A DNA stretch of 64,000 nt from an uncultured Chloroflexia bacterium (GCA_963828965.1 CAWHGL010000004.1:140533-204532); one strand, 5' to 3'. Counted from the first letter of the stretch, positions 16,881 through 56,738 are shown. Translations and numbers: made by a program. Notes: generated by a model not told the origin, from the letters alone.

Positions 16881-18418
16881 TCAGCGCAGGTCGCGTCGCA
16901 ACGCGGACCTTGCCGCGAGATACCCGCCCATCCCATGCACGCCGCCGCCCGGTGGCGTCGACGACGAGGCGAGATAGAGGCCCGGCCCCGCGTGGTACGG
17001 GTCCAGCGCCGGGACCGGCCGGAACAGGAGCTGGCGGATGTCGCTGACACCGGCGTTGATGTCGCCACCGACGTAGTTCGCGTCGTGGGCCTCCATCTGG
17101 GCCGGCGCGTGCGTCGAGCGCGCCAGGACCCGGTCGCGGAAGCCCGGCGCGAAGCGCTCCATCTGGCCCTCGATCGCGGCGGTCATGTCGACGTCCGAGC
17201 CGTTGGGCACGTGGCAGTACGCCCAGGCGGTCGTCCTGCCCTCCGGGGCCCGCGACGTGTCCCACGGGTGGTATTGGACGACGAGCGTGAACGGCCGGTC
17301 GGGATGCCGGCCCGCGCCGACCTCGCGTTCGGAGGCGACGACCTCGGCCGCGGTCCCGCCCAGGTGGACGGTCGCAGCGCGACGAAGGCCGTCGGCGGTC
17401 CACGGGATGGGTCCGTCGAGCGCCCAGTCGACCTTGAACACGCCCGGCCCGTAGCGGAACGCCTCGTATCGACGCCGGGTCCGCGACGGCAGCCGGTCGC
17501 CAGCGATCGCCGCCAGCGCCGTCGGGGTGGTGTCGAAGATGACGGCCCGCGCCGCCGGCAACTCGGCCAGTGTCGTGACCCGCTGCCCGACGACGATCTC
17601 GCCGCCGAGGTCGCGGATCTCGCCCGCGAGCGCCTCCGCCACCGCCGCCGAGCCGCCGCGGATCATCGGCCAGCCGACCGCGTGGGCGTACATGCCGAGG
17701 ACCAGTCCGAACGACGCCGTCAGTGGCCGCTCCAGCGGCACCATCGAATGGGCAGCAAGGCCGGCGAACAGGGCGCGCGCGGCATCGCCATGGAACGAGC
17801 CCTCGGCCAGGCCGCTGGCCGAGCGCAGGGCCGGCAGACCGAAGCGCATGAGCGCCAGCGGGTGACGCGGCACGTGGACGACCGGTCGGAGCAGCTCTCC
17901 GGACAGCTTGCCGGCGTCGCGCGTCAACGGTCCGAACAAGGAGCGCCAGGCCTTGCCGTCGCCCGCCTTCCGCCCTGCCCGCCCTCGGCGAGCCCGGCCC
18001 CGGTCGCCGCGACGGACCGCTCCAGGACGGCGGCGCGGCCACCGTCGAGGGCATGGGCCACGGGAGCGTCCGGATGGACGATGTCCACGCCACGAGCGGC
18101 CAGGTCGACCATCCGGAAGAACGGCGACGCGGCGGTCAGCGGCAGGATCGTCGAGCAGACGTCGTGGCGGAACCCGGGGAGGGTCAGCTCCTGGGTCCGT
18201 GTCCCGCCGCCGATCGTGTCGGCCGCCTCGATGACCCGCACCGACCGGCCGGCGCGGGCCAGCGTCAGGGCGGCCGCCAGGCCGTTGGGCCCTGCGCCGA
18301 CGACGATCGCGTCGAGCGCCGGACCGGTCACGTCCGTCCCCCCGGCGACCGGAAGCGTCGCGGCCGCCACGACGGGGTGGGACGACGGTCGGACCCCCCT
18401 CGGCCCGACCGTCGTCAC
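16881..18418 (-). pseudogene. FAD-dependent oxidoreductase (phytoene desaturase/CrtI-like family), one frame change
   Basis: The N-terminal Rossmann motif DAIVVGAGPNGLAAALTLARAGRSVRVIEAADTIGGG is in the frame of ORF 17924..18733. The C-terminal 352 aa are in ORF 16881..17939. The join (...AGLAEG / AGDGKAWRSLFGPLTRDAGK) lies in a G-rich stretch at about 17950-17985. Proposed start is the GTG at 18418, overlapping the upstream stop (GTGA). 18331 is an alternative start. Confidence 0.7.
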
Positions 18419-19208
18419 CCCTTGCGGGAGATCCAGCGGACCGGTGCCGTGAGGGTGTGGCGGGCGGTGCGCAGCGTCGCGCTGTTGCGCACGTTGCGGG
18501 CGTGCCGCCACTGGCGGCGCTTGTCGATGCAGACGATCTGGGTGTCGACCCGCGGGTCCGCGTTGCCCATCGCCTTGGCGACGTTCGACAGCGTCTCGCG
18601 CCAGAAGCGGTCGTTCATCCGATTGCCGCCCAGCATGTAGGCGAGCTCGTCGAACGGGTCGGAGGTGCGTTCCAGGGCCTGCGCCTGGAGGACGGTCGCC
18701 TCGCCGTCGCGATAGGCGGAGAAGGTGATCCACGCCGACAGGGTATGGCCCTCGGGGGTCATGAACGTGAAGGACTCGTCGTCGGCGTAGATGACCATGA
18801 CGCCGGTCGAGAGCTTGACCGGCGAGCCCGGGACGGGCGCGATGTCGAGCAGGGCGACCTCGCCGGGGGCGATGCCCGCGAGCGGGGCGTAGAACCGCGC
18901 GCCCTTGGGCCAGAACGTCGGGAAGCGCTCCTTCCAGGCCGCGACGACCTCCTGGGGCGTCAGCGATCCGTCGAGCTCGACGCGGAACGTCTTCTGCCAG
19001 AGCTGTCCGAAGCCCTGCAGCGGCCCCGACACGCGCTTGCCGGTGACGGAATCGACCTTGGCGCCGGTGACGCCGGTCGCCGACAGGCGGTCGACGGGCT
19101 TGGCCCAGTTGGCGGCGTCGCGCGCCGGGCCGACGTCGCCGGCGTGCTCGGGGAAGGGGTCGGGGTGGTGGTGGTCGGGGTCGGGATCGTCGGTTCGGTC
19201 ATCGTCAT
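18415..19208 (-). CDS. Conserved hypothetical protein; the 5' end is ambiguous or frame-shifted
   Basis: ORF 18415..19032 reads GFGQLWQKTFRVELDG...TPEGHTLSAWITFSAY.... The same frame continues upstream as plausible protein (DPFPEHAGDVGPARDAANWAKPVDRLSATGVTGAKVDSVTGKR) with no start codon. The only ATG (19208, MTMTEPTIPTP) is in another frame, 5 nt after the STAS stop. Confidence 0.55.
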
Positions 19209-19213
19209 CGCCG

Positions 19214-19561
19214 TCAGCCTTCCGCGGCCGCGATGGCCGCCGCTTCGGTGTCGTGGATCTCGATCGCTTCCTCGAGCCGGGTCAGCGCGAGGATCTCGCG
19301 GTAGTGGTTCGACAGGCCCGTCGCCAGCAGGCGGATGGCGCTGCGCTGGGCGCGGACGAGGAGCGTCACGAGCAGGCCGATGCCACCCGAGTTCATGTAC
19401 TCCATCTGCGTGAAGTCGAGCACCACCGCCGTCGCACCGTCGTCGACGGCCTGGGTGAAGCCGGCCATGAGCTCGGCTTCGCTGCCCGAGGTGACATCAC
19501 CGGAGATGCGCAGGATCGCGACGGTGCCGACGCGATCGAGGCCGATCATGGTCGTGGTCAT
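19214..19561 (-). CDS. STAS-domain anti-sigma-factor antagonist (RsbV/SpoIIAA-like), copy 1
   Basis: 115 aa. LDFTQMEYMNSGGIGLLVTLL carries the conserved phosphorylatable Ser context. C-terminus is HYREILALTRLEEAIEI. Confidence 0.85.
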   Translation of the reverse strand: MTTTMIGLDRVGTVAILRISGDVTSGSEAELMAGFTQAVDDGATAVVLDFTQMEYMNSGGIGLLVTLLVRAQRSAIRLLATGLSNHYREILALTRLEEAIEIHDTEAAAIAAAEG

Positions 19562-19890
19562 GCGGCGTCTCCTTCGACGATGTCCATGAAGTCGGACAGG
19601 CGGGTGATCCGGAAGATCTCGCGGTAGTGCGGGGTGAGGCCCACGGCCCGCACGCCACGGCCGTCGCGCCGGGCGTCGGCGAGCAGCCGGACGACGAGCG
19701 CGATGCCCGTGCTGTTGATGTAGCCCACGTCGTGGAAGTCGAGGGTCATCCGCTTCGACCCGATCGCGACCACCTCGCCGTACGCCGCGTTGAGCGTGTC
19801 GTCGGCGCGGCTGTCGAGGTCACCGCGCATCCGGACGCGGACCTCGTCGGGGACATCCTCGACCTGGGCTCCGAACCGGCGGTCATCCAT
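19558..19890 (-). CDS. STAS-domain anti-sigma-factor antagonist (RsbV/SpoIIAA-like), copy 2
   Basis: 110 aa. LDFHDVGYINSTGIALVVRLL has the Ser/Thr in the conserved position, followed by HYREIFRITRLSDFMDI. It overlaps copy 1 by 4 nt. Confidence 0.85.
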   Translation of the reverse strand: MDDRRFGAQVEDVPDEVRVRMRGDLDSRADDTLNAAYGEVVAIGSKRMTLDFHDVGYINSTGIALVVRLLADARRDGRGVRAVGLTPHYREIFRITRLSDFMDIVEGDAA

Positions 19891-21433
19891 GGCTGGTCTC
19901 CTGGCGGGCCAGCCGCAACGTGACGGTCTGGGTCCCCGCGTCGTCGTCGGTCGTCACGTCCATCGCGTCGACCATGTGCTCGATGAGGAAGAGCCCCCAC
20001 CCGCGCGGCTTCTGCTCGCCGGCGAGCTTGCGCTCGATGTCGGGGGTCTCGGCGTCGCTCGGGACGGTGCCGGACAGGGCGTGGTCGGTGACGCGCACGA
20101 TGACGTCGTCGGGCGTGACGGCGACTTCGACGTCGAACGGGACGTCGTCGCGACCCTGGCTGCCGTATTCGATGGCGTTCATCGCCGCCTCGCTGACGGC
20201 GGTCTTGAGGCGTTCGAGACGGTCGGACGAGAGGCCGAGATCGGCGATCGCGGCCGCCACCCGGTCCATCGCCTCACGCTCGTTGCCGGTCGTGCCCGGC
20301 AGGCTGAAGGCCGTCAGCGCGGTCGAGCCGATGTGGCCGTCGTCGTCGGCCACGCCGGCCGCGCGACGGAGGGTCACGAGCGTGATGTCGTCCTCCTGCT
20401 CGTGCTCGGTCCCGGTGAAGCCGTGGAGCGTCTCGAGCAGCCGGTCGAGCAGCTCGCTGCCGGCGTCGTCGATGCGCAGGGCCTCGCGCAGGCGGCCGAA
20501 GCCGAACATCTCGCGGGCGTCGTCGTGTGCCTCGATCAGGCCGTCGCTGTAGAGCAGGACGTTGCTGTCGGGCGCGATGTCGCTCTCGGTCTCGTCGTAG
20601 CGCATCCCGGCCATGAGCCCCAGGGGCATGCCGGTCGCCCGGATCTCGGTGACCTCGTCCCCGGTGCGCACGAACGGCAGGTTGTGGCCGGCGTTGGCCA
20701 GCACGATGTGGCCGGTGGTCGGGTCGAGGACCGCGAACAGGCAGGTCACGAACATCTTGGCCGGCATCTCGGGCACGAGCAGGTCGTTGGCCCGCGACAG
20801 GATCTCGCCGGGCGAGTTGCTGCGGGACGCCTCGGCGCGGAGGATGCTGTGGGTCCGGGCCATGACCAGTGCCGCGGGCACGCCCTTGTCCGTGACGTCG
20901 CCGACGGCGATGCCGATGCGCCCGTCGGGCATCTCGACGAAGTCGTAGAAGTCGCCACCGACCGCGCGGGCCGGACCGTAGTACGCGGCGACCTGCCACT
21001 GCGGCAGCTGCGGCAGCTGGCGCGGCAGGAACTGCTGCTGGATGAGCGTCGCGACGCGCAGCTCCTGGGCGAGACGCTCCTTCTCGGCGGCCTCGTTGGC
21101 CTGCTCGCGGACGAGCTGCGCGACCCGGATCGCGGGCGCGGCCTGCGCGGCGAGGGTCGCCAGGAGGCGGCGGTCGTCGGTCGAGTAGTCCTGCTCGGAC
21201 AGGCGCGGGCCGAGGTTGAGCGTGCCGATGAGCTCGCCCTGCGACACGAGCGGCACGACCAGGGCCACGCCCGCATCGCGGAGGGCCGTGACCGCCGGCG
21301 ACTCGAGATCGAGCCGGGCGATGTCGACCGGGCCAGGGGCGGACTGCAGGTAGGCGAGGAGCGGATCGGACTCGGGGATGTCGACGGCGACGCGAGACCG
21401 CATCGGGTGCGGCGGACACGGTGGGCGTGGCAT
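19883..21433 (-). CDS. GAF - PP2C (SpoIIE/RsbU-type) phosphatase - HATPase_c (RsbW-type kinase) fusion protein
   Basis: 516 aa. The GAF-like part is VPLVSQGELIGTLNLGPRLSEQDYSTDDRRLLATLAAQAAPAIRVAQLV. The PP2C part is GGDFYDFVEMPDGRIGIAVGDVTDKGVPAAL...FVTCLFAVLDP...ANAGHN...LLYSDGLIEA. The C-terminal RsbW-like part is LKTAVSEAAMNAIEYG...VRVTD...RGWGLFLIEHMVD. The N-terminus may really begin at 21521/21533 (MRHEMTELTRPIRRLLGR in a second frame). Confidence 0.85.
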   Translation of the reverse strand: MPRPPCPPHPMRSRVAVDIPESDPLLAYLQSAPGPVDIARLDLESPAVTALRDAGVALVVPLVSQGELIGTLNLGPRLSEQDYSTDDRRLLATLAAQAAPAIRVAQLVREQANEAAEKERLAQELRVATLIQQQFLPRQLPQLPQWQVAAYYGPARAVGGDFYDFVEMPDGRIGIAVGDVTDKGVPAALVMARTHSILRAEASRSNSPGEILSRANDLLVPEMPAKMFVTCLFAVLDPTTGHIVLANAGHNLPFVRTGDEVTEIRATGMPLGLMAGMRYDETESDIAPDSNVLLYSDGLIEAHDDAREMFGFGRLREALRIDDAGSELLDRLLETLHGFTGTEHEQEDDITLVTLRRAAGVADDDGHIGSTALTAFSLPGTTGNEREAMDRVAAAIADLGLSSDRLERLKTAVSEAAMNAIEYGSQGRDDVPFDVEVAVTPDDVIVRVTDHALSGTVPSDAETPDIERKLAGEQKPRGWGLFLIEHMVDAMDVTTDDDAGTQTVTLRLARQETSHG

Positions 21434-21559
21434 CGGACGCTGCCGGGACGTCGACCGCGGGGGCGGTCGTGCGATCCCCGCGCCCGAGGAGGCGGCGGAT
21501 GGGGCGGGTCAGTTCGGTCATCTCGTGCCTCATGCTGGGACCTGCTCGTCCGGGAATCG

Positions 21560-22774
21560 TTACGGCTCGGCGCGGCGCAGCCAGAGGCCGACGAGGGCCG
21601 GGGCCACGGAGGCCCGGACCGTGTCGTCGAGGTCGTCGGCGAGGGTCTGGAGGTCCACTTCGTCGCGGAGTCGCTCCGCGAATGCGTCGGCTATGCGCGC
21701 GCCGTCGTACCGGGACCGATCGAAGCGGCGATCGACGGCGCGCTGGACATAGCGTCGGACGGGCTGAAAGAGCGCGAACGCGAGGAGCGTCGAGACGGCG
21801 ACGGCGAGGGTCTCTCCTTCAGTCTCGCCCCGGGTGACGCCGGCCAGGATGGCCTGCGACGCCAGGACGCCGGCGACGAAAACCGCGACCAGGATGCCCG
21901 TCACGACCGCCCAGGACACCGTCCGCGAGACGATCCGGTCGATGTCGTACAGCCGGTAGCGGAGGATCGCGATACCGATCGCGATCGGGATCAGAGTGCC
22001 GCCCAGCACGCTCCCGACGTCGATGAGGTCGGCCGGTCCGATGTCGGTCGAGAACGACAGGGGGAACAGGACAGCGGTCAGCGATACGGCGGCGACGAGC
22101 CACTTCATCTGCGCCTTCTCGACCCCGCTCGAGCGGCGGTAGCGCGCGACGATCCCCGCGACCGCGAGCGCAAGGGCGAGGAAGATCGCGATCGCACTCA
22201 CGGCGCCCCCCACTTCGGATACGGCCGTCGGGACATCCGGCAGGGCGAACGGGTTCGGGACCGGCTGGTCCTTGCTCGGGACCCACGGGCCGATCGTCTG
22301 GAGGACGACGCCGATGCCGAGGAGAGCGACGCTCGTGGCCACCGGGAATCGCCACCGCGAACCCGGCAGGCGACCGTCCGGGAAGACGAGAGCGACGGCA
22401 GGGAAAAGCAGAAAGAGGCCCGGCAGGAGGGCAACTGTGGCCCACCAGGCGATGAGGCCGCCGGCGGTCGGTGCGATGTCTCCGCGCTCATGGAGGACGA
22501 CCGCGAGGGGCCAGCAGATGAACACACTCATCACCACGAGCGCCCCGACGATCAGGAGCCACGCGATCCGGTTGCCCGGGACTCGCCAGTCGATGATGAC
22601 GCCGACCCCGACGGCGCTCAGGACCAGCAGGCCGATGGCGTTGACGAAGACGCTCAAGCCGCCAGCGTCGGCGACGAACAAATCCCCGGCCTGGATCGCA
22701 AGGATGTTGCCGACGACCAGCATCCCGACGGCCAGGGCGAGGGCGGCGACCAGGAGCGCACGGCGCAGGCTCAT
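21560..22774 (-). CDS. Polytopic membrane protein, kinase-less sensor-like family, paralog A
   Basis: 404 aa, from MSLRRALLVAALALAV within ORF 21560..23878. About 10 hydrophobic segments. Motifs: WRVPGNRIAWLL, FPDGRLPGSRW, RYRRSSGVEKAQMKWL, RYRLYDIDRIVSR, LFQPVRRYVQRAVDRRFDRSRYD, LWLR. Confidence 0.8.
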   Translation of the reverse strand: MSLRRALLVAALALAVGMLVVGNILAIQAGDLFVADAGGLSVFVNAIGLLVLSAVGVGVIIDWRVPGNRIAWLLIVGALVVMSVFICWPLAVVLHERGDIAPTAGGLIAWWATVALLPGLFLLFPAVALVFPDGRLPGSRWRFPVATSVALLGIGVVLQTIGPWVPSKDQPVPNPFALPDVPTAVSEVGGAVSAIAIFLALALAVAGIVARYRRSSGVEKAQMKWLVAAVSLTAVLFPLSFSTDIGPADLIDVGSVLGGTLIPIAIGIAILRYRLYDIDRIVSRTVSWAVVTGILVAVFVAGVLASQAILAGVTRGETEGETLAVAVSTLLAFALFQPVRRYVQRAVDRRFDRSRYDGARIADAFAERLRDEVDLQTLADDLDDTVRASVAPALVGLWLRRAEP

Positions 22775-23958
22775 TGCGCCCGCCGGGTCCCCAGCCAGAC
22801 GCCGATGCCGTTCGGATGGACGGCGGCGGCGGCGGTCGCGTCGAGCTCGGCGATGAGCGCTTCGAGACCGATCTCGTCGCGAAGTCGATCCGCGAAGGCG
22901 GCCGCCATCCGCTCGCCGTCGTAGCGACTGCGGTCGAAGCGCCGGTCGACGGCGTGCTGCACGCGTCGCCGGACCGGCTGGAACAGGGCGAAGGCCACGA
23001 GCGTGGAGGCAGCTACAGCCAGCGTCTCGCCCTGCGTGACGTCGGTCAGGGCCGTCTGAAGGGCGAGCACGCCACCCACGAACACCAGCGCCAGCACCCC
23101 GGTCACGATCGCCCATCCGATCGTGCGACCGACGATCCGATCGATGTCGTACAGGCGGTAGCGCATGACGGCGAACCCGATGGCCAGGGGCACGCAGGCG
23201 TAGGCCATTACGACGGCGATCCAGGTGAGGCCCAGCGGGTCCTGCTCGGTCGCCACGGAGAACAGCGCCCACAGCGCGGTGGAGATCGCGGCTAGGGCGA
23301 CGGCGGCAGCGAGCCAGCGGTACTGGAGGCGTTCCAGCCCGCTCGACCGTCGCCAGCGCATGATCAGGCTGAGGACGCCCAGGATCACCAGCACGAAGAG
23401 CGTCGGATAGAGCGCGAACAGGCTTGGAACGATCGCCCAGATCGCGGCACCGGGCGCGAGTGCGAGCGGGTTCGGCACCTCGATCTGAAGCGACGAGCGC
23501 GCCGGCGCGAGGACGGTCATCGGCGCGACCGCCATGACCGCCGAGATGAGGATGGCGGCCCCGAGCAGGAGGTGGCTGGGCAGGGCGGCCCGGCCACCAG
23601 GCAGGCGACCGGTCGGGAAGACCAGCGCGAGGGCGAGCAGGCCGACGAACGCGAGACTCCAGCCCCAGCCGCTCGCCACGACGGCCGCCGCATCCTCGGG
23701 GTCGAGCCCACCGGCGAGCATGTCTGCCACCGGGATGGCGACCCGGACGCTGCCGAGGCTCAGCCCCCAGGCGGTGAGGAGCAGCAACCAGCCGATGCTG
23801 TTGCCGGGGCGCCGGATCGCCAGGAACGCCCCGACGCCGCCGAAGGCGACGAACAGCACCACCCCGCCGATCTCCCATATGCGGATGGCCATGGCGACCC
23901 CGACGAGCGTCGAGCCGATGACGAGCAGCGACAGGAGGGACCGACGTCCGGTCCTCAT
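22771..23958 (-). CDS. Polytopic membrane protein, kinase-less sensor-like family, paralog B
   Basis: 395-aa ORF. Motifs: RRPGNSIGWLLL, FPTGRLPGG, RWRRSSGLERLQYRWL, RYRLYDIDRIVGR, LFQPVRRRVQHAVDRRFDRSRYD. ATGA overlap with paralog A. Confidence 0.8.
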   Translation of the reverse strand: MRTGRRSLLSLLVIGSTLVGVAMAIRIWEIGGVVLFVAFGGVGAFLAIRRPGNSIGWLLLLTAWGLSLGSVRVAIPVADMLAGGLDPEDAAAVVASGWGWSLAFVGLLALALVFPTGRLPGGRAALPSHLLLGAAILISAVMAVAPMTVLAPARSSLQIEVPNPLALAPGAAIWAIVPSLFALYPTLFVLVILGVLSLIMRWRRSSGLERLQYRWLAAAVALAAISTALWALFSVATEQDPLGLTWIAVVMAYACVPLAIGFAVMRYRLYDIDRIVGRTIGWAIVTGVLALVFVGGVLALQTALTDVTQGETLAVAASTLVAFALFQPVRRRVQHAVDRRFDRSRYDGERMAAAFADRLRDEIGLEALIAELDATAAAAVHPNGIGVWLGTRRAQ

Positions 23959-25154
23959 CGACGCCCGCCCGCTGGGCGTCGCCAGATCGCCACAGAGCTT
24001 GGCTCCACCGTCCGCCGGATGATGGCGCCGATGGTGTCCGTCAGTCGATCCACGTCCACCACGTCACGGAGCTCCACGACCAGGGCCGCAAGGGCCTGGT
24101 CATGGTCGTAGCGCGACCGATTGAACCGCCGGTCGACGAGCCGCTGCATCCGGAGGCGCACCGGGTTGAACAGCGCCGCCGCCACGAGCGTGGAGATGGC
24201 GACGGCCAGGCTGTTGCCTCGGACGGCCGATCCGAGCACCGACTGGATGGCGATGATCAAGCCACCGAACACGGCGAACAACACGGCGCTGACGCCGGCG
24301 TAGGCGATCGTCCGGCTGATGATCCGGTCGATCTCGAACAGGCGATAGCGCATCACGGCTACCCCGATGGCGATCGGCGTGAGCGGGTAGGCGATCAGAG
24401 CGGGGATCCAGGCGTAGCCCCCGATCGTGTCGAACGCCGCGAAGGTCACGAGGCCGAAGGTGATGGCGCTGACGAGGAACGCCATCGCCGCCAGCAGCCA
24501 GCGGATCTGGAGCCGCTCGACCCCGACCGCGCGGCGATAGCGGACGATGAGGCCGATGACGGCCGCGGCGAGCACGAGGATCGGGATCAGGGTGACGAGC
24601 ACCATCGCGACACCGAGCGCCTCCGGCGTCGGGTCCGGCAGGAACCCTACCGGATTCGGGATCCGGATCTCGGTCGCGCCGTTGGCGCTGAACACGAGTG
24701 TGTGCGCAAAGGCTGGAAGGCTGATCGCGATGACCCCGGCCGCCAGGGCCGCGACACAAGCCGCCCGCGCCCGCCCCCCCGGCAGATGCCCGGACGGGAA
24801 CATCATCGCGACCGCTGCGTGCAGGAGGAATGTCGCACCGCCCGCCCACACCGTGATCCAGGCCCAGATGATCTGCTCGGGGCCGGCGCGCCCGGCCTGC
24901 ATCGCGACCGGATCGAACCATGCCGGGGTGGTCGTGCCGACAAACCCTAAACCGATGGCGATCAGCAGCCATCCGATCACGTTGTCCGGCCGTCGGATGG
25001 CCAGGAATCCGCCGACCAGGCCGAATGAGACCCACTGAGTGAGGGATATGACGTCGGTACCGCCGACCGGGAGGCTGGCGAGCAGCAGCGCCACGACCGC
25101 GATCCAAGCCAGCACCGACAGCAGCCGATCCCGCCGCACGTTCGCCGCGGTCAT
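23955..25154 (-). CDS. Polytopic membrane protein, kinase-less sensor-like family, paralog C
   Basis: 399-aa ORF. Motifs: RRPDNVIGWLL, FPSGHLPGG, RYRRAVGVERLQIRWL, RYRLFEIDRIISR, LFNPVRLRMQRLVDRRFNRSRYD. ATGA overlap with paralog B. Confidence 0.8.
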   Translation of the reverse strand: MTAANVRRDRLLSVLAWIAVVALLLASLPVGGTDVISLTQWVSFGLVGGFLAIRRPDNVIGWLLIAIGLGFVGTTTPAWFDPVAMQAGRAGPEQIIWAWITVWAGGATFLLHAAVAMMFPSGHLPGGRARAACVAALAAGVIAISLPAFAHTLVFSANGATEIRIPNPVGFLPDPTPEALGVAMVLVTLIPILVLAAAVIGLIVRYRRAVGVERLQIRWLLAAMAFLVSAITFGLVTFAAFDTIGGYAWIPALIAYPLTPIAIGVAVMRYRLFEIDRIISRTIAYAGVSAVLFAVFGGLIIAIQSVLGSAVRGNSLAVAISTLVAAALFNPVRLRMQRLVDRRFNRSRYDHDQALAALVVELRDVVDVDRLTDTIGAIIRRTVEPSSVAIWRRPAGGRR

Positions 25155-26383
25155 GGGCGCCCCCCCGCGCGCAGCCAGACACCGGTGCTCGTGGGTTCGA
25201 CCGCCTCGGTCGTGGTCCGCCGCAGCTCGCCGGTGAGGGTCGGGAGGTCAAGCTCGTCACGCAGCCGGCCGGCAAAGCCGGCGACGGTGCGTTCGGCGTC
25301 GTACCGGGCTCGATGGAATCGTCGGTCGACGGTCGTTTGGACCCGAAGCCGGACCGGGTTGAACAGGGCGGCGACGACCAGCGTCGATGCCGCCACCACC
25401 CGGGGATCGAGCTTCGACCCGGGCCCAGCGACCGCCCCCGTGACGAGCGACTGGAGGAGCAGGATCAATCCACCGAAGACCACCAGCAGGAGCGCCGTCA
25501 CGAGCGCGTAGGCGATCGACCTGCTCACGATCCGGTCGATGTCGTACAGGTGATACCGGGTGATGGCGATGGCAACGGCGAACACCGGCAGCCCCAGGCT
25601 GGCCAGGGCCACCGCCCACAGGCCCGGGACAAGCTCGCCGAGCACGACCAGGCTGATCATCAGCGCGGCGCTTGCCACCGCCGAAACCAAGACCCAACGC
25701 ATCTGGACGCGGCGAGTCGGGTCGGCGCCGCGGTATCGGAGGGCGAGATCGACGATCGCCCCCAACCAGGCGAGGGCGAAGGCAAGGACCGCGAGCGGCA
25801 GGGACACTGTCAGGGCGTCGTCGAGGAGGCGGCTCCAGCCGACCGCTCGAAGGATGGGGTCCCGCAGGCTCCCTACCGCGACCGTCACGACGCCGAACAG
25901 CAGCGCGAACTGGATGACCGCACCGAGCCGGCTCGTCCGACGGCCGTCCGGGAACCACGTGATGAGGAGCACGGCGCCGAATAGCAAACCCGCGATCGCC
26001 AGCAAGGTGGATAGCGCGTCCGCCATGTCATAGATCGCCTTGAACGGTCCCAGCAACACACTCCGGACGCCGACGCCCGGCTGCCACCACTCCAGCACGG
26101 TCGTCAGGGCCGCACTCCCCGCGAACAGCAGCCCGATCCCGAGCGCAAGGCGACCGATACCGTGCCCGGGTCGCTTCCAGAGCACCACGACGCCGACGAA
26201 CGTGAACATGAGGGCGCCGTAGATCGTGATCACCGTCGTCAGCGGGTCCTGCTCCGGGCTTCCCAGGGTCCAGATGATCGCCATCAGCGAGGCGATCACG
26301 GCGAACCCGGCCACCGCCGCGAGGGCGACCTCGCGCCGAGCGGGTCCGGTCGCGACGGGCATGAGGCGGGACATGCCGGGCAT
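25151..26383 (-). CDS. Polytopic membrane protein, kinase-less sensor-like family, paralog D
   Basis: 410-aa ORF. Motifs: KRPGHGIGRLAL, FPDGRR, RYRGADPTRRVQMRWV, RYHLYDIDRIVSR, LFNPVRLRVQTTVDRRFHRARYD, VWLR. ATGA overlap with paralog C. The start could be one of the nearby internal Met codons. Confidence 0.8.
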   Translation of the reverse strand: MPGMSRLMPVATGPARREVALAAVAGFAVIASLMAIIWTLGSPEQDPLTTVITIYGALMFTFVGVVVLWKRPGHGIGRLALGIGLLFAGSAALTTVLEWWQPGVGVRSVLLGPFKAIYDMADALSTLLAIAGLLFGAVLLITWFPDGRRTSRLGAVIQFALLFGVVTVAVGSLRDPILRAVGWSRLLDDALTVSLPLAVLAFALAWLGAIVDLALRYRGADPTRRVQMRWVLVSAVASAALMISLVVLGELVPGLWAVALASLGLPVFAVAIAITRYHLYDIDRIVSRSIAYALVTALLLVVFGGLILLLQSLVTGAVAGPGSKLDPRVVAASTLVVAALFNPVRLRVQTTVDRRFHRARYDAERTVAGFAGRLRDELDLPTLTGELRRTTTEAVEPTSTGVWLRAGGRP

Positions 26384-26391
26384 CCTCCACC

Positions 26392-29310
26392 GTGGACGTC
26401 ACTGGAACGTTACGGGACAGGCCCCGCAGTCGCTACCGTTACGCGGTGGCGCACGAACGGCGCGGCAAGCCGCGGCTCGACATCCGACTCCTTGGTCCGC
26501 CCGAGGTCCTCGTCGACGGTCAGCCCCTGCGCGTCGACACCCGCAAGGCGATCGCGATCCTCGCCCTCCTCGGAGCCGAGGGCCGGGCGTTCGCCCGCGA
26601 CGAGCTGGCGGCCCTGCTCTGGCCCGAATCCGACGACATGGCCGCCCGCGGCGCGCTGCGGCGGACGCTTTCGACCATGCGGACCGCCATCGGTGAGGGG
26701 CCGCTGGTCATCGATCGCAGCCGGGTCGACCTCGATCGACGGATGGTCCGCGTCGATCTCGACATCGTCGATACCGCCACACGGTCCGACGACCGTCCGA
26801 CGCTGGCCGCGGCGGCGGCGCTCGCCCACGGGGCGTTCCTGGCCGGTTTCAACCTCCGCGACAGCCCCGAGTTCGACGACTGGCGGGCGGCGCGCGCGGT
26901 CGCGGCCGAGCGGGCGGTGCTGACCGTCCTGGATCGACTCGCCATCGTCGCCGAGGCGGATGGAGACCTGCCGGCCGCCATCGAAGCCGCGTCGCGTCGC
27001 CTGGATCTCGACCCGCTGGACGAGGGCGGCCACGTCCGGCTCATGGACCTCCTCGTCGCGACCGGTGACCGGTCCGCCGCGCTGCGCCAGTACCGGGTCT
27101 GCGTGGCGACGCTCGAGCGCGAGCTCGGCGTGGAGCCGCTCGCCTCGACGACCGCCCGCTACGAGGCGATCCGCGACCAGGATCCCGGCGTCGCGGCCAG
27201 GCCGGTCGAGGCGGCCAAGGCGGCAAGCGCGGCGATCGACGGCGACGGCGCGCAGGCATCCGATCACGACCTGCCGACCGCCTTCCCGCTGGTCGGCCGC
27301 GCCGACAGCCTTGGTGCGGTCCTCGCGGCACGGGCCGCGGCCGCCGGCGGGACTGGCCGGGTCGTCGCGGTCCTCGGCGAGGCCGGGATCGGCAAGACCC
27401 GGCTGGGCGACGAGATCGCGGCCCGCGTTCGAGCCGATGCCGGCGTCGTCCTCGCCGCCACCGCCTACCCGGCCGAGCGGGCGATCGCCTACGGCCCCAT
27501 CGTCGACTGGCTTCGGGCGGCGCTCGCCCTGCCGGACGCTGCCGAGCGCGCGGCCGGTCTGGAGGAAGCGACGCGGATGGAGCTCGCCCGGCTGTTGCCG
27601 GCCATCGAGTCGCACGGCGGGACGGCCCTTCCCGATGGCCCCGGCGCCCACGCTCGGCTCGTGGCTGCGATCGCGGACGGGCTGACCGGCCTCGTCGCCG
27701 GCTCGACGCCCGGACTGCTCTGGATCGACGACGTCCCGTGGCTCGACGCCTCGACCCGCGAGGCTCTCGAGTTCCTGGCGCGAAGGCTCGCCGGTCGTCC
27801 GATCGTCCTGCTCCTGACCGCACGACCCGGCGACCTGGATGCCGACGGACGCGCGTTCGTCGACCGGATGGCCGCGACCCCGGGCGCCGAACGACTCGAG
27901 CTCGCCCGGCTCGACCGGGCGGACGTCGCGACCCTGGTCGGCGTCGGTGCTGGCCCGGGCGGCCCCGACCCCGACGTGGTCGACCGCCTGTCCGTCGCCT
28001 CGGAGGGCCTGCCGCTCTACGTCGTCGAGGCGCTGACCGCCGGCCATGGCGCCGCCGTAGCCGACGCCCTCCCGGCCGGGGTCGGGGCCGTGCTCCGGGA
28101 GCGGCTCGGGGTCGTCGGCGAGACCGCCGGGCAGGTCCTTGCCGCGGCCTCCGTCATCGGACGCTCGTTCGACGTGGCCACGCTTCGCCATGCGAGCGGG
28201 CGGACCGACGACGAGACGGTCGACGCGCTCGACGAGAGCCTGCGCCGCGGGCTCATCCGCGAGGCTCCCGGCGGCTTCGACTTCGCCCACGGCGCGTTGC
28301 GCGATCTCGCCTACGAGCGGACGAGTCTGGCCCGCCGCCGGCTGCTCCACCGGCGTGTCGCCGAGGCGCTGCGCCTGGATCTCGCCGGAAGCGGCCGCGA
28401 CGACCTCGGGCGGCTCGTCCTCATCGCCGGTCACGAGCGTGCCGCCGGCCGGGACGCCGAGGCGGCCGAGGCGTATCGCCAGGCCGGCGAACGTGCGGCC
28501 GAGGTCTTCGCCAACCGCGACGCGATCGCCCACGACGAAGCGGCACTGGCCCTCGGCCATCCCGACCAGGTCGGGCTGTACAGCGCCATCGGGCGTCTGC
28601 GGACCCGGATCGGCGACTACACCGGGGCGATCGCGGCGCTCCAGGCCGCGGCGGCGCTCGCGGGGTCGTCGCGACCTGGCCGGCCTCGAGTGGGCGCTGG
28701 CTCGCGCCCACCTGCGCCGCGGCGACCTCGCTGCGGCCGACCACCATCTGGATGCTGCGGCGGCGGCCGCGCCCGACGATGCCGGTCTGGCCGCCCGCCT
28801 GTCGGTCGACCGGAGCGTCATCCGCCGCCGCCTCGGCGATCAGCCCGGCGCCGCGCTCGCCGCCGCGGACGGCCCTGGCGGAGGCCGACCCGCGCCGGCG
28901 ACCCGATCGCTGCTGGAGCCGCCCACCGGATGCAGGGTCTCGCCGCCCTCGATGGTGGCGATCCGGCCGCGGCCATCGCGGACCTCCAGATCGCTCTGGC
29001 GGCCGCGGCGAACGACCCCGACCCATCCGCCGAGGTCGCCGCGCGGACCGGTCTGGCCATGGCGATGGCCCGGACCGGCGATCTCGATGGGGCGCTGGCC
29101 GAGGGCGACGCCGCGCTCGCGGCCTGCCGACGGATCGGCGACCGACACCTGGAGGCCGCGGTGGAGAACCACCTCGCCGACCTGCTCCACGCGGCGAACC
29201 GCGACGAGGAGGCCATGCCCCACCTGCACCGCGCCGTGGCCGCGTTCGCCGAGGTGGGTGGTGACCCCACAGACCCCGATCCCGGGATCTGGATGCTGTC
29301 CGCCTCGTGA
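26392..29310 (+). CDS. Large SARP/AfsR-like regulator: OmpR-type winged helix + BTAD + NB-ARC/AAA ATPase + TPR
   Basis: 972-aa ORF. The DNA-binding part is LDIRLLGPPEVLVDGQPLRVDTRKAIAILALLG...ELAALLWPE. The BTAD part is DLDPLDEGGHVRLMDLLVATGDRSAALRQYRVCVATLERELGVEP. The P-loop is VLGEAGIGKTRL, followed by C-terminal TPR-like helices. The likely true start is the GTG at 26446. There is an out-of-frame excursion at about 28668-28890 (see findings). Confidence 0.8.
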   Translation: MDVTGTLRDRPRSRYRYAVAHERRGKPRLDIRLLGPPEVLVDGQPLRVDTRKAIAILALLGAEGRAFARDELAALLWPESDDMAARGALRRTLSTMRTAIGEGPLVIDRSRVDLDRRMVRVDLDIVDTATRSDDRPTLAAAAALAHGAFLAGFNLRDSPEFDDWRAARAVAAERAVLTVLDRLAIVAEADGDLPAAIEAASRRLDLDPLDEGGHVRLMDLLVATGDRSAALRQYRVCVATLERELGVEPLASTTARYEAIRDQDPGVAARPVEAAKAASAAIDGDGAQASDHDLPTAFPLVGRADSLGAVLAARAAAAGGTGRVVAVLGEAGIGKTRLGDEIAARVRADAGVVLAATAYPAERAIAYGPIVDWLRAALALPDAAERAAGLEEATRMELARLLPAIESHGGTALPDGPGAHARLVAAIADGLTGLVAGSTPGLLWIDDVPWLDASTREALEFLARRLAGRPIVLLLTARPGDLDADGRAFVDRMAATPGAERLELARLDRADVATLVGVGAGPGGPDPDVVDRLSVASEGLPLYVVEALTAGHGAAVADALPAGVGAVLRERLGVVGETAGQVLAAASVIGRSFDVATLRHASGRTDDETVDALDESLRRGLIREAPGGFDFAHGALRDLAYERTSLARRRLLHRRVAEALRLDLAGSGRDDLGRLVLIAGHERAAGRDAEAAEAYRQAGERAAEVFANRDAIAHDEAALALGHPDQVGLYSAIGRLRTRIGDYTGAIAALQAAAALAGSSRPGRPRVGAGSRPPAPRRPRCGRPPSGCCGGGRARRCRSGRPPVGRPERHPPPPRRSARRRARRRGRPWRRPTRAGDPIAAGAAHRMQGLAALDGGDPAAAIADLQIALAAAANDPDPSAEVAARTGLAMAMARTGDLDGALAEGDAALAACRRIGDRHLEAAVENHLADLLHAANRDEEAMPHLHRAVAAFAEVGGDPTDPDPGIWMLSAS

Positions 29311-29317
29311 GGCAGGC

Positions 29318-30763
29318 TCAGCCGCCCACGACGAACGGTTCGCCGGGCGAGAACTCGAGATCAGGCCACGTGCCGTGGGCGCAGACCGGCCCGTAGGTCA
29401 ACGCCTCCAGGCTGGCGGTCGCCGTGACGGGCGACCCGGCTCCGGCGTCGTCGTTGGCCGCGGCGCCCTGCACGATCCACTCCGGAGGGCTGGTCTCCGT
29501 GGATAGGTCGACCGTCGCAAGGAAGTCGGTGGCGTCCGTCCACGGGTGCGGCGGTCGTACGCCGACGACCAGCAGTCCCGACGGGGTCCCTTCGGTGCCG
29601 GTGAACCGGACCGTGTACACCCCGGGTCCGGACCCGTTCACGGTCGCGGCACAGGTCGTGCCGTCCCATGTCACGTCCATCGTTCCCGCCAGCGAGAACG
29701 GCGTCGCTCGTGGCGCCCCGCGCTGCAGCGCAGCCAGCAGCGCAGCCTCGACGGCGGGTCGATCTGCGGCGGAGGCATAGCGGATCGGCCGACCGGCCGC
29801 GTCCTGGGTCAGGCGTCCGTCGTCGCCGACGACGACGTCGGCGTCCGCCCAGGTCACGAGGTCCTGGTCGCTCAGCGACAGGGCCGCGAGCTCGTCCCAG
29901 AGCTGCTGGCCCTGGCTGGGGTCGAGGCGTCCGGGGTTGCGTAGCAGCAGCTCGTCCACGAGATCAGCGCCAGCCGCGGCGTGGTCCGTCGCCAGGCGAT
30001 CGGCGAGGTCCGCCGGGACGGGGACGTCGTCGGTCGCGTCGAGCGGGACGAGATCGATCGGCACATCCGTTGCGAGCACCGCCTCCACCGCAGACGGGTC
30101 GGCGAACGCGTTCCACTCGAACGGATCGGTCGCGTCGTGGCCACCCACGAAGACGTTGCCAGGCGCCTCGATCGTCCCGAGCATGGCGTGGATGCCGGCG
30201 ATCCGGTCGGGCAAGGTCGGGTCAGCCGCGAAGGCGTCCTCGAGGTTCGTGAGGGGCCCGAGCGTCACGATCGTGGGCGCGCTGGGACTGTCGTCCACGG
30301 CGGCGCGGATGACCTCGACCGCGTCGTGCGGGACGCCGGCCTCCGCCTTCGGCGTGATGTCCAGCCCGTACCCCTTGTCGGCCACGGCGCGCCAGTCGTC
30401 GGGGAACGGGGTCGCGTCCGGGCCGCCGGCCTCGCGGCCGCAGCCGAACGGGATGTCCGGCTGGCCGAACTCGTCGAGCAGGTAGCGCGTCACGAGGCGA
30501 CCACCCTGGCAGTGCACGACGCCGGTGCCGTCGATGGCGATGGCCCGCACATCGACCTCCGGATCGCGCAGCAGGACGGAGATGGCGGCGATGTCGCTGA
30601 GGTCGAAGTCGGCGTCGATGATGATCGGCCGCCGGTCCGGTGCCGGCTCTCCGGTCGGAGCCGGGGTCAGCGACGTCTCGGCGGTCGCGTCGCAGGCGGC
30701 GAGCACGAGCCCGAGCAGCAGGAGCCGGACCAGACCGGTCCGATGCGGGTACCTCTTCGTCAT
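29318..30763 (-). CDS. Secreted/lipoprotein nucleoside hydrolase (IUNH family) with an extra C-terminal domain
   Basis: Lies in ORF 29318..30790, starting at MTKRYPHRTGLVRLLLLGLVLAAC (lipobox). The N-terminal Asp cluster IIIDADFDLSDIAAI is followed by TIVTLGPLTNLEDA, which is IUNH-like. The C-terminal roughly 150 aa are unassigned. Confidence 0.75.
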   Translation of the reverse strand: MTKRYPHRTGLVRLLLLGLVLAACDATAETSLTPAPTGEPAPDRRPIIIDADFDLSDIAAISVLLRDPEVDVRAIAIDGTGVVHCQGGRLVTRYLLDEFGQPDIPFGCGREAGGPDATPFPDDWRAVADKGYGLDITPKAEAGVPHDAVEVIRAAVDDSPSAPTIVTLGPLTNLEDAFAADPTLPDRIAGIHAMLGTIEAPGNVFVGGHDATDPFEWNAFADPSAVEAVLATDVPIDLVPLDATDDVPVPADLADRLATDHAAAGADLVDELLLRNPGRLDPSQGQQLWDELAALSLSDQDLVTWADADVVVGDDGRLTQDAAGRPIRYASAADRPAVEAALLAALQRGAPRATPFSLAGTMDVTWDGTTCAATVNGSGPGVYTVRFTGTEGTPSGLLVVGVRPPHPWTDATDFLATVDLSTETSPPEWIVQGAAANDDAGAGSPVTATASLEALTYGPVCAHGTWPDLEFSPGEPFVVGG

Positions 30764-30797
30764 GGGCGCAGGATGCGCCCATGACGTCACGAAGGGG

Positions 30798-53896: not shown

Positions 53897-54277
53897 GTGA
53901 TCGACCAGACGACCCTGTACGCGCGCGCCGGCGGCATGGCGTTCTTCGAGGCGCTGGTCAGCGCGTTCTACGCGGGCGTGGCGAGTGATGACGTCCTGCG
54001 GCCGCTCTATCCGGAGGCCGACCTCGCCCCCGCACAGCACCGGCTCACCCTGTTTCTTGCCCAGTACTGGGGCGGTCCGCGGACCTACGACGAGGAGCGC
54101 GGGCACCCACGGCTGCGGATGCGCCACGCGCCGTTCGCCATCGACGGCGCCGCACGCGATCGCTGGCTCGTTCACATGCGCGCGGCGCTGACCACGGTCG
54201 CGCCGCCCGACGACGTCGCGGCCGAGCTCGAGGCGTACCTGTCGATGGCCGCCGAGGCGATGCGCAACCGCGACTGA
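53897..54277 (+). CDS. glbO: Group II truncated haemoglobin (trHbO)
   Basis: Lies in ORF 53741..54277, from the GTG (VIDQTTLYARAGGMAFFEALVSAFYAGVASDDVLRPLYPEADLAPAQHRLTLFLAQYWGGPRTYDEERGHPRLRMRHAPFAI). This is a near-canonical GlbO sequence. Confidence 0.85.
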   Translation: MIDQTTLYARAGGMAFFEALVSAFYAGVASDDVLRPLYPEADLAPAQHRLTLFLAQYWGGPRTYDEERGHPRLRMRHAPFAIDGAARDRWLVHMRAALTTVAPPDDVAAELEAYLSMAAEAMRNRD

Positions 54278-54292
54278 CCACTCGCGGGCCTG

Positions 54293-54941
54293 TCAGTGCA
54301 CGCGCAACCAGGTAAGGACAGCGAGGACGCGGCGATGGTCGTCGGTCTGTGGCTCCAGCCCGAGCTTCGAGAAGATGTGGGCGACATGCGTCTCGACCGT
54401 CTTCTCCCCGACGCCGAGCGCGGTCGCGATCGCCCCGTTCGAGCGGCCCTCGGCCATGAGCCGGAGGACCGCCGTCTCGCGCTCGCGTGAGCTCGACCAG
54501 CGCGTCGCGGTCGCGCCGCCGGCCGACGAGCACGGCCACGACCTCTGGATCGATCGCCGTGCCGCCGCGCGCCACCCGCCGAACCGCGTCGAGCAGCTCA
54601 TCGACGTCGGCGACCCGGTCCTTGAGCAGATAACCGACGCCGGTCCGACCATCGGCGAGGAGGCGCACGGCATGGGCCGGCTCGACGGCCTGCGACAGGA
54701 CGACGACCGGCGTCGGCGGGGACGCGGCCAGCAGCGCCTCCGCCGCCCGCAGCCCCTCGTCCGTGAAGGTCGGTGGCATGCGGATGTCCACGATCGCGAT
54801 GTCGGGCCGGCTCGTCGCGACCAGATCGAGCAGCGCGGTCGCATCGCCCACGGCGCCGACGACCTCGAACCCACCGTCCCGCAACACGCGGGCGACGCCT
54901 TCGCGCAGCAGGACGTTGTCCTCGGCTAGGACGACGCGCAT
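54293..54941 (-). pseudogene. NarL/LuxR-family response regulator, one frame change between receiver and HTH
   Basis: The receiver MRVVLAEDNVLLREGV...PDIAIVDIRMPP... is in the frame of ORF 54045..54941. The HTH RERETAVLRLMAEGRSNGAIATALGVGEKTVETHVAHIFSKLGL is in ORF 54293..54874. The change is near 54490 (ALVELT / RERE). Confidence 0.8.
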
Positions 54942-56738
54942 GGCAGCTCCACCACGATCCTCGTCCCGCCATCCGGTGGACTCGTCAGCCGGAACGTGCC
55001 GCCGAGCGCGGCGACCCGATCCTCGAGACCGCGCAGTCCCGTCCCGCCGTCGGTCGACGCACCGCCGCGACCGTCGTCGGTGATCTCGAGGCGGAGGTCC
55101 GGCCCGTCGCGCCGAGCGCGGACGTCGACCCGCGTGGCATCGGCATGCTTCGCCGCGTTGGTCAGCGCCTCGGCGACGACGAAGTAGGCGGTCGCCTCGA
55201 CGGGCGGCGGCAGCCGCCCCTCCACCGTGCTGTCGACCGTGACCGGCACGAGCGACCGTTCGGCGAGCGACGTCAACGCCGCGCTGAGCCCGGCCTCGGT
55301 CAGGATGGCCGGATGGACGCCGCGGGCCAGCTCGCGGATCTCGGTCACGGCGGCGCGGGCCTCGGCGGAGGCGGCGTCCACCTCGGCGAGCACGGCGGGA
55401 TCCGTACCGTCGTCGAGCTGGCGGCGAAGCAGCTGCAGCGACAGCTGGAGCGAGACGAGCCGTTGCTGGGCGCCGTCGTGCAGGTCGCGCTCCAGCCGGC
55501 GGCGCTCGACATCCTGGGCCTCGACGATGCGGGCCCGCGACGCCCGCACGTCGTCCAGCTGGGCCAGCACCTCGGCCTGCAGCCGCTCGTTCTCGACGGC
55601 GAGACGGATGGCGGCGACGGCCGCCGCGACGAGGCCGGGGTCGTCGCGCAGGGCCGGGTCGAGGGCGATGCGCAGGCCGGGCGCCTCGGCTCCGGTGTCA
55701 TCGATGGCGACGACCGCGCGGGCCGGACCGTCGTCGGGCGGCGTCGCCGGCCGGCCATCGGCATCGCGAAAGCCCGCGAGGGCCACGTCCCAGCGATAGA
55801 CCTGCACCGACGGGTCGCCCAGGGCATCGCGCAGCGACGTTTCGAGCACGGCGATCGACGGGAGATCGCCCAGCCCGATGACGAGGTCGGCGATCCGTCC
55901 CCGTGCCGCGGTGTCGCGCAGCACGCCAAGCAGGAGCCCAACGGCGACGCCGATCCGGAGGATGGCCAGCACGAGGACCCGCAGCTCGCCCTCCGCGGTA
56001 CGGGCACTGGCCGGCACGAGCGTCTGGAGCAGGAACCCGCCCGTGAACCCGAGGGCGAGCACGACGCCCGCCGCCACGACCGGCGCCCGCCGCCGACGGG
56101 CGGCGCCGCTCGCCTGCGCCCAGCGGACGATCAGGAGCCCAAGGACGCCGAGGCTGAGCGCGGTGAGCGCCGCGGTCTCGACCCGGCCGATCGTGAGCCA
56201 TCGCGTCCTGGGCGGCGATCCACGCGTCGACCGTGTCGAGGCAATCGGGGCACGGCCACCAGGCGATGGGCGCGAGGGCGACCGCCTTGGTGAGCGTCCA
56301 GCCGAGCTGCACCGCGACGAACCCGATGGCCAGGAGACGCTCCGGGCGCCGCTCGAACCGGCCCGTCGGGTAAGCCAGGATCACGAGCGCGAACAGCGGA
56401 TCGAACCATCCGTGGGTCGTCCCCCCGAGAAAGGCCACGACCGCCGAATCGGCCGAGGTCGCGTCACCCGCGAACCAGGCGAAACCGGTCAGCACGGCCA
56501 ACGGCCCGATCCGGTTGCCGGGTCGCTGGTCGGCGATGATCAGGCCGGTCGCGATCATCGACCAGCCGACCGCGACATCCGCCAGCAGCAGGGCCGGGCT
56601 GCGGGGCGCGGTCAGCGTGAGCTGCGCGGTCGCAACGGGCCCGAGCACGAGCGCGGCGACGCCGATGGCCAGGAGCCAGAACCGTCGCGTGGTCGACGAT
56701 GCGGTCACGGTCGCGGTCGACATCGCCGCCCGCGTCAT
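54926..56738 (-). pseudogene. NarL-type sensor histidine kinase (membrane sensor + HisKA_3 + HATPase_c), one frame change
   Basis: The N-terminal membrane domain is in the frame of ORF 55698..56738 (ADQRPGNRIGPLAVLTGFAW, LAYPTGRFERRPERL). The remainder is in ORF 54926..56077 extended upstream (WLTIGRVETAALTALSLG...ERRRLERDLHDGAQQRL...AEALTNAAKHA...GTGLRGLEDRV). The change is near 56215. Confidence 0.8.

Follow-up and report, generated by a model that had tools for sequence, protein, structure and literature searches.

A stretch of 64,000 nucleotides (nt) from an uncultured Chloroflexia bacterium (GCA_963828965.1 CAWHGL010000004.1:140533-204532; hereafter the window) carries an array of four genes, A to D, for polytopic membrane proteins that resemble the sensor part of a histidine kinase and have no kinase domain. 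The question raised by this locus is where the output of these sensors lies. The genes are arranged head-to-tail on the minus strand. D (410 amino acids, 25151-26383) is the first gene of the operon and encodes a ten-transmembrane (10-TM) sensor half that ends in an N-terminal GAF fragment; it is followed by C (399 amino acids, 23955-25154), B (395 amino acids, 22771-23958) and A (404 amino acids, 21560-22774), the final copy of the array. Stop and start codons overlap as ATGA between D and C (25151-25154), C and B (23955-23958) and B and A (22771-22774). An earlier description of the locus, made from the sequence alone (the sequence-only reading), had reported this arrangement, and the open reading frames (ORFs), their sizes and all three overlaps were verified at precisely these coordinates. 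The next gene encodes a phosphatase/kinase of the partner-switching type. We argue that A to D, and probably also a fifth paralogue, E, are the stand-alone sensor halves of a split partner-switching membrane sensor phosphatase/kinase, and we consider this reading probable.

The sensor tail and the start of the adjacent gene

Pfam and NCBIfam scans of A to D gave sub-threshold matches only (HisKA_7TM, PrsK and LuxN), and matches to DUF2755 and Cornichon were discarded as noise. C weakly matches the membrane region of PrsK (E 0.0017). The HisKA_7TM model (PF16927) matches B with 11.4 bits (E 0.29), below its gathering score of 28.6, and the same scan gave no match for A, C or D; at E<=1 it matches 20 of 110 homologues (best E 4.3e-6). 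The sensor family is a distant relative of HisKA_7TM and no recognized member of it. No HisKA or HATPase domain was matched by Pfam in A to D, and no STAS domain in A to E.

A tblastn search of plasmids led to a protein of Deinococcus peraridilitoris annotated as 'GAF domain-containing sensor histidine kinase' (WP_015231682.1, plasmid pDEIPE02), which is an example of the 10TM-GAF-HisKA_3 kinases. Searching with its N-terminal part gave at least 5061 relatives, and the best 120 of these are almost all ~700 amino acids long with GAF, HisKA_3 and HATPase_c domains. When the family was compared with a profile of 42 such kinases, hhalign gave a probability of 100% (E 2.3e-51, 385 aligned columns). 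Residues 5-395 of the family align to residues 24-423 of the kinases, the tail included, and correspond to the N-terminal 60% of these proteins. This bears out the proposed homology between A to D and the membrane sensor module of histidine kinases. The family ends just past the kinase segment ...LKLPYAAIAL..., after the GAF strand beta1. Pfam places the GAF domain of the kinases from ~380-400 to 470-480, and in several of them the GAF_3 match reaches back into the segment that is aligned to the tail. Judged by these alignments, the tail is a juxtamembrane helix followed by the beginning of a GAF domain, namely its first helices and strand beta1. In A it occupies residues 335-404 (21563-21772, minus strand), with the juxtamembrane helix LFQPVRRxVQxxVDRRFDRSRYD coming before the GAF elements, which end in ...P-x5-WLR. 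It had been suggested that this DRRFDRSRYD tail replaces a HisKA/HATPase output. The tail replaces nothing, because the kinase relatives, and the unsplit phosphatases described below, keep the same segment and then continue with the rest of the GAF domain.

The sensors therefore share with the 10TM-GAF-HisKA_3-HATPase_c kinases the membrane module, four cytoplasmic Arg-rich motifs, the juxtamembrane helix and the first GAF elements. In contrast with the kinases, the window proteins have no complete GAF domain, no histidine of a dimerization and histidine phosphotransfer (DHp) domain and no ATPase domain, and their neighbours in the window are PP2C and STAS genes rather than a response regulator gene.

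The gene that follows A (19883-21533, minus strand) encodes a short peptide, an Ala/Pro-rich linker, the C-terminal part of a GAF domain, a SpoIIE/PP2C phosphatase domain and HATPase_c_2, an RsbW-like serine kinase domain. Its ATG is at 21533 and the stop of A is at 21560, leaving a gap of 26 nt. SpoIIE (E 1.3e-51) and HATPase_c_2 (E 1.9e-19) are clear Pfam matches. GAF_3 is matched only at profile positions ~53-127 of 129. The half-GAF (21125-21394, minus strand) comprises beta2, inserted helices and the beta4-beta5 hairpin, and it also includes the first part of the long C-terminal helix, which continues into the PP2C linker. Positions 86-132 of the half-GAF alignment match residues 434-480 of the kinases (hhalign probability 97%, E 1.1e-10), and the match is collinear with, and directly after, the part of the kinases that is aligned to the sensor tail. 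These alignments show that the adjacent gene begins with a GAF fragment complementary to the tail. The sequence-only reading had treated the GAF-PP2C-kinase protein merely as a candidate interaction partner. Its gene in fact opens with what the alignments identify as the remainder of the tail's own GAF domain.

The PP2C gene has a frame shift between ~21395 and 21433, and its N-terminus was rebuilt from orthologues. In the split type the N-terminus reads M(T/S)xLTRPIRRLLGR, then a variable Ala/Pro-rich linker of 30-50 residues, then ...IAVDIPESDPLLAYLQ..., a pattern that covers 29 full-length orthologues from related loci and 73 N-terminally complete orthologues from databases. There is no room in these proteins for the first GAF elements. 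In the window, 21492-21533 encodes the conserved peptide, which is also found in orthologues including those of loci L006, L020 and L029. The peptide and the disordered linker are absent from unsplit relatives, and the peptide could be a docking element. We also considered whether its LTRPIRRLLGR is a vestige or mimic of the juxtamembrane LFQPVRRRVQ; MAFFT aligned the two repeatedly, hhalign gave no signal and the idea was dropped.

The two GAF fragments occur joined in nature. When the N-terminal 170 residues of the window PP2C ORF were searched exhaustively by phmmer against 1.84 billion representatives, there were 235 matches at E<=1e-30, many of the best beginning at residue ~400-570 of proteins of 735-1008 amino acids. 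In 53 of the best 148 representatives the hidden Markov model (HMM) of the sensor family matches directly upstream of the half-GAF match. P0404 (758 amino acids) has a sensor domain at residues 22-395 (E 6e-71) and the half-GAF match from residue 401. The Pfam GAF domain (PF01590) is full-length in this protein, covering residues 371-491 (profile positions 3-133), and SpoIIE comes next. Profile position 3 of the Pfam GAF domain in the unsplit proteins begins inside the segment equivalent to the tail. The junction of P0404 reads ...TMQPTSFSLWLQPLGPDAEPAGIQIPPGDPL..., and in the window A ends at its stop codon with ...APALVGLWLRRAEP and the PP2C protein resumes with ...RVAVDIPESDPLL.... P0412 (947 amino acids) and P0414 (1008 amino acids) also carry HATPase_c_2. 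Residues 56-399 of A match residues 99-428 of P0412 (BLASTP, E 4e-22), and the window PP2C protein matches residues 446-933 of P0412 with 53% identity over 490 residues (E 3e-166). The fusions are real; they recur on several independent contigs from different sources and lack the peptide and linker to be expected from read-through of the split genes.

A STAS gene follows both P0412 and P0414, and an FAD oxidoreductase gene also follows P0412. Taken together, the data show that the tail and the half-GAF are fused in close relatives and that the kinase-bearing fusions precede a STAS gene, as the window PP2C gene does. Proteins of the P0404 type, which lack HATPase_c_2 (loci L082 and L083), have no STAS gene after them; downstream are a gene for an ArsR/MarR-like helix-turn-helix protein and an AHSA1-domain gene. 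This branch may be wired differently.

The unsplit 10TM-GAF-PP2C(-HATPase_c_2) proteins, exemplified by P0412 (GCA_048499455.1), P0414 and the P0404 cluster, thus have the same membrane module, juxtamembrane motif, GAF, PP2C and RsbW-like kinase domains as the window genes, with the difference that they are single polypeptides from single genes. In the window, by contrast, the cut falls in the loop between beta1 and beta2 of the GAF domain, there are 4+1 copies of the sensor half, and the N-terminal peptide and disordered linker have been added to the output half. Since the separate genes together cover the architecture collinearly, the window system is a split variant of this class and not a strict member of it. 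The unsplit phosphatases are annotated in their sources only as 'serine phosphatase RsbU', and HEX8929012.1 of the P0404 cluster is named 'GAF domain-containing SpoIIE family protein phosphatase'. To our knowledge, no unsplit 10TM-GAF-PP2C protein has been studied experimentally. Of 35 unsplit phosphatases, 17 have the beta1 signature P-x(3-8)-hydrophobic-W, compared with only 2 of 110 kinases. The single top score of the family HMM (233 bits) belongs to an unsplit phosphatase. The notion that the unsplit phosphatases are systematically closer to the family than the kinases are was rejected, as their median score is 140 bits compared with 162.

The sensor family and its membrane module

A to D are homologous and not merely alike in composition, because pairwise BLASTP gives 34-48% identity with E values of 1e-40 to 1e-82. 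They are thus true paralogues, as had been claimed, with a similarity far above the level to be expected from composition alone. The five motifs listed in the sequence-only reading were all found in A to D and are kept across the alignment of 110 homologues. Third-position GC content is of the coding type. D has a second ATG at 26374 with GGAGG 9 nt upstream, and this is more probably its start than 26383. E (404 amino acids, 31065-32279, minus strand) was located by tblastn, ORF analysis and the family HMM and is a solo copy outside the array (tblastn against A to D, E 1e-31 to 1e-50; family HMM, E 1.8e-173). D and E are separated by a SARP gene and a nucleoside hydrolase gene (29321-30790), and the tail of E is complete.

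The family is large. A search with B gave more than 3000 relatives (clusters at 90% identity), and the 120 that were listed are nearly all ~400 amino acids long, have no Pfam domain and are 'hypothetical' at best. A scan of one genome per species gave at least 563 loci, most of them in metagenome-assembled genomes from soil labelled Chloroflexia or Candidatus Limnocylindrales, and a few labelled Actinomycetota, Gemmatimonadota or Acidobacteriota. We searched the six-frame ORFs of 77 other loci with an HMM built from A to E and obtained 320 matching ORFs. Tandem arrays on one strand are the rule in these loci, with between 1 and ~10 copies. In all 320 ORFs the profile reaches the stop codon or stays within a few dozen residues of it, which leaves no room for a kinase. 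This shows that the lack of a kinase is a stable trait of a large family and not a local truncation; homologues elsewhere do not always carry a kinase, as the nearly uniform length of the 120 listed relatives also indicates. Three apparently longer members were rejected as fusions. P0010 and P0020 are gene calls that merge two tandem copies, and P0035 is one in which a family copy is joined to the N-terminal part of an FAD oxidoreductase. Such merged calls are a caution for domain architectures read from metagenome gene calls.

The paralogues are old and maintained, because the closest relative of 162 of 174 sensor genes lies in another genome. Median identity to that relative is 55%, compared with 43% within the own array. 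As to whether the array encodes a hetero-oligomeric complex or a battery of sensors, as had been suggested, this age favours distinct, maintained roles for the paralogues. No positional orthology of array members between genomes was evident.

An AlphaFold2 model of B, made with the 110-homologue alignment, has a pLDDT (predicted local distance difference test) of 88 and a pTM (predicted template modelling score) of 0.78. It shows ten transmembrane (TM) helices, in agreement with the approximately ten hydrophobic segments noted earlier, together with a short beta-hairpin on the outer side and a helical C-terminal tail, its last ~15 residues poorly ordered. Counts of Lys and Arg per loop give a topology with both termini inside, and this places the four Arg-rich motifs and the tail on the cytoplasmic side. 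Conservation peaks in the RYRLYDIDR loop, TM10 and the juxtamembrane helix and is lowest in TM1 and the outer loops. The C-terminal P-x5-W strand is strongly conserved, yet has a pLDDT of only ~50 in the monomer model of B; this is what would be expected if the strand needs a partner.

Proposed reconstitution of a GAF domain and alternative explanations

The kinase relatives and the phosphatase relatives alike have a contiguous GAF domain, so the split state is most simply regarded as derived. We propose that an ancestral 10TM-GAF-PP2C-kinase gene underwent fission at the beta1/beta2 loop and that the sensor half then multiplied into what are now ancient paralogues. The strand and helices of the sensor tail would re-form the GAF domain non-covalently with the half-GAF, and the output protein would thereby be tethered to the membrane. 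This reassembly is suggested by the Rosetta-stone principle and by the position of the cut inside a domain. A conformational change in the TM bundle could then pass to the reconstituted GAF domain and through its C-terminal helix to the PP2C linker, and so set the balance of phosphatase and kinase activity on the two STAS proteins encoded downstream. The STAS proteins would in turn act on their targets, for which a DUF1990-like protein and an FAD oxidoreductase are candidates. Consistent with such a route, PPM phosphatases are controlled by dimeric N-terminal sensor domains, GAF domains included, via a crossing helical linker (PMC12143880).

Several old and divergent sensor halves per output half suggest different inputs to one output. 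The sensor halves, differing in their TM and outer-loop sequences, would share or compete for one output half. In its most specific form the proposal is that up to ~10 input halves each complete the single output half by strand/helix complementation, and that the sensor plugged in, or the combination within a dimer, sets the state of the pathway; on this form our own judgement is evenly divided.

The genomic context points the same way. In ~48 of the 77 loci there is a fixed order of divergent SARP gene, sensor array, half-GAF-PP2C-kinase gene, two STAS genes, DUF1990-like gene (X205) and FAD oxidoreductase gene, and the same order occurs in loci labelled Actinomycetes, Thermoleophilia, Cellulomonas and Acidobacteriota. 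The co-occurrence with PP2C/STAS and SARP genes for which a neighbourhood survey had been recommended is thus found. The last sensor gene and the PP2C gene are 0-90 nt apart in related loci, and translational coupling extends past A, as the PP2C gene overlaps the first STAS gene and this overlaps the second. The spacing and the coupling point to co-expression.

Several results may count against the split reading. In an AlphaFold2 model of an artificial fusion (full-length A plus PP2C residues 1-182, unpaired alignment, monomer), the tail strand was not packed on the half-GAF and residues 391-409 had a pLDDT of 45-52; the half-GAF alone was modelled with confidence (pLDDT 93-97). When Pfam GAF models were applied to artificial chimeras of tail and PP2C protein, the matches did not reach into the tail. 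In ~12 loci a family gene stands alone, with no PP2C gene within 10 kb, and E is likewise solo; some of these solos share a contig with an array (L010/L067 and L042/L064). There is no sigma or anti-sigma gene in the operon and no sigma gene among the conserved neighbours. One class of Chloroflexota contributes a large part of the synteny, some of which could be due to common descent.

Some of these points would also be accounted for if the family worked without the PP2C protein. The sensors would then be truncated modules that form heterodimers, either among themselves or with full-length 10TM-GAF kinases or phosphatases of their superfamily, and serve as decoys, modulators or scaffolds, and the conserved neighbourhood would be inherited gene order with no physical partnership. 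The solo copies in unrelated contexts, the lack of a contact signal in the AlphaFold2 chimera and the size of the full-length kinase family with the same membrane domain (at least 5061 matches) fit this explanation, as does the concentration of conservation in TM9, TM10 and the juxtamembrane helix, regions of a type that commonly forms dimer interfaces. However, it leaves unexplained why the GAF fragment of the sensors ends exactly where the GAF of the neighbour begins, and why unsplit fusions exist with the same STAS gene downstream; the short spacing and translational coupling, with the co-expression that they suggest, also count against it. We consider this explanation unlikely.

An explanation that is less likely still takes the tail for a new module, autonomous in output or interaction, that replaced the kinase core, and the four proteins for a hetero-oligomeric complex in the membrane that has its own function. 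Conservation of the tail is strong, its predicted structure is helical, and coupling of the four genes is compatible with stoichiometric co-expression, but the kinases and unsplit phosphatases carry the same tail segment followed by the rest of the GAF domain, and a copy number that varies from 1 to ~10 between genomes argues against a complex of fixed composition. That the genes are decaying kinase or phosphatase pseudogenes, or an unrecognized transporter or enzyme family, might be thought from the frameshifts in several other window genes and from the lack of a Pfam family of their own, but is largely refuted and very improbable in view of more than 3000 homologues (those listed being nearly all of ~400 amino acids), coding-type third-position GC, ancient paralogues with orthologues in other genomes and the absence of any transporter or enzyme match by sequence (PDB) or fold (Foldseek). 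In these searches the family profile had no match in PDB sequences at E<=10, and neither the B model nor the chimera model had a Foldseek match in the PDB at E<=1e-3. The top Foldseek matches were G protein-coupled receptors and rhodopsins with TM-scores of 0.2-0.33, which we put down to the generic likeness of helical bundles and not to homology.

The split-GAF arrangement can be compared with known partner-switching systems. The PP2C domain, HATPase_c_2 domain and Ser-bearing STAS proteins of a partner-switching module are all present. The Bacillus stressosome/RsbU pathway (RsbRA-RD, RsbS, RsbT, RsbU, RsbV and RsbW) has the same logic, in which paralogous sensors act on one PP2C phosphatase and this acts on a STAS protein. 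RsbR proteins reside in the cytoplasm, and their coupling depends on STAS domains of their own and on the kinase RsbT, whereas the window sensors have ten TM helices, no STAS domain and a proposed coupling by completion of a split GAF domain. Sensors of the RsbR family are marked by a C-terminal STAS domain and by RsbS and RsbT partners, and A to E have no STAS match. The likeness is therefore best seen as an analogy of logic between unrelated parts. The PP2C phosphatase of the RsbU pathway is controlled via an N-terminal domain and helical linker (PMC12143880).

Rv1364c of M. tuberculosis and OsaC of S. coelicolor resemble the window output protein in that PP2C is fused to a HATPase_c_2 kinase. 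Both are soluble, and we know of no detached membrane partner for either. Unlike the window protein they have complete sensor domains in cis. These are N-terminal PAS/GAF domains joined to the PP2C/HATPase_c_2 fusion (cited in PMC12143880). As single polypeptides the window proteins lack the defining features of both their closest known relatives, the unsplit 10TM-GAF-PP2C(-kinase) proteins and the 10TM-GAF-HisKA_3 kinases. The system is therefore best classed as a partner-switching sensor of a known kind in a new, split and amplified form; it belongs to neither family and is not categorically new. Full-text literature searches (HisKA_7TM; split or incomplete GAF) gave no description of such an arrangement.

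If the split reading is correct, it would give a role to an uncharacterized family of more than 3000 members that is found mostly in soil Chloroflexota/Limnocylindria, with some members in Actinomycetota. It would link this family to PP2C/STAS partner-switching, for which it has long been asked what the inputs are. The wiring of many inputs to one output would be unusual, and signalling would gain a natural case of protein-fragment complementation. For mutagenesis, handles are offered by the site of the split and by the conserved strand at the C-terminus.

Operon neighbours and surrounding genes

Downstream of the PP2C gene are two STAS genes on the minus strand. STAS1 (110 amino acids, 19558-19890; STAS_2, E 2.3e-12) has the Ser motif YINSTG and its start overlaps the PP2C stop. 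STAS2 (115 amino acids, 19214-19561; STAS, E 2e-14) has the Ser motif YMNSGG and overlaps STAS1 by 4 nt. The translations show that both retain Ser at the phosphorylation position, and STAS1 is a presumed substrate of the PP2C and kinase domains. X205 (18415-19122, minus strand; extent by tblastn) is DUF1990-like, with an E of 0.0086 that is below the Pfam cut-off, and is present in 48 related loci as a protein of 205-280 amino acids. The last gene of the conserved order encodes an FAD oxidoreductase of the amine-oxidase/phytoene-desaturase type (16905-18331, minus strand), which is frameshifted near 17960-17984. X205 and the oxidoreductase follow the STAS genes in ~44-48 related loci and may be targets of the pathway or co-factors in it. 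Within the operon, terminator-like sites were no commoner than chance, and the promoter/terminator scan was uninformative.

On the other side of the array is a divergent gene for a SARP/AfsR-type regulator (26392-29310, plus strand; BTAD, AAA_16 and TPR by Pfam), which is present in 44 related loci. Its called GTG (26392) is only 8 nt from the ATG of D, so the real start is probably further downstream. The region between D and this gene (26384-26470) was searched for SARP-type repeats, and only a direct repeat of the 7-nt element CGTTACG, 29 nt apart, was found, which is probably due to chance. A gene resembling the sigma-70 family lies at 44298-44891, ~22 kb away and unlinked. A NarL-type two-component pair is encoded on the minus strand at 54926-56738 (kinase with HisKA_3 and HATPase_c) and 54045-54941. 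The sequence-only reading had pointed to motifs shared by this kinase and the sensors. The motifs are present (QRPGNRIGPL and YPTGRF), but the resemblance is only marginal (~55.7-56.7 kb against the family, hhalign probability 43%, E 2.5e-4, 75 columns), and the kinase at 54926..56738 is in two reading frames in the window. Further from the array, a pair of genes of cluster c5 (11835-12899 and 12915-14987, plus strand) recurs beside the operon in 20 related loci.

Finally, frame breaks are present in four genes of the window that are otherwise conserved: the PP2C gene (~21395-21433), the FAD oxidoreductase gene (17960-17984), the NarL-type kinase gene (~56077) and a gene of cluster c7 (36084-37038), which belongs to a class of 455 amino acids. 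Orthologues of all four are intact elsewhere, and the breaks have the look of indel errors from a long-read assembly rather than of pseudogenes.

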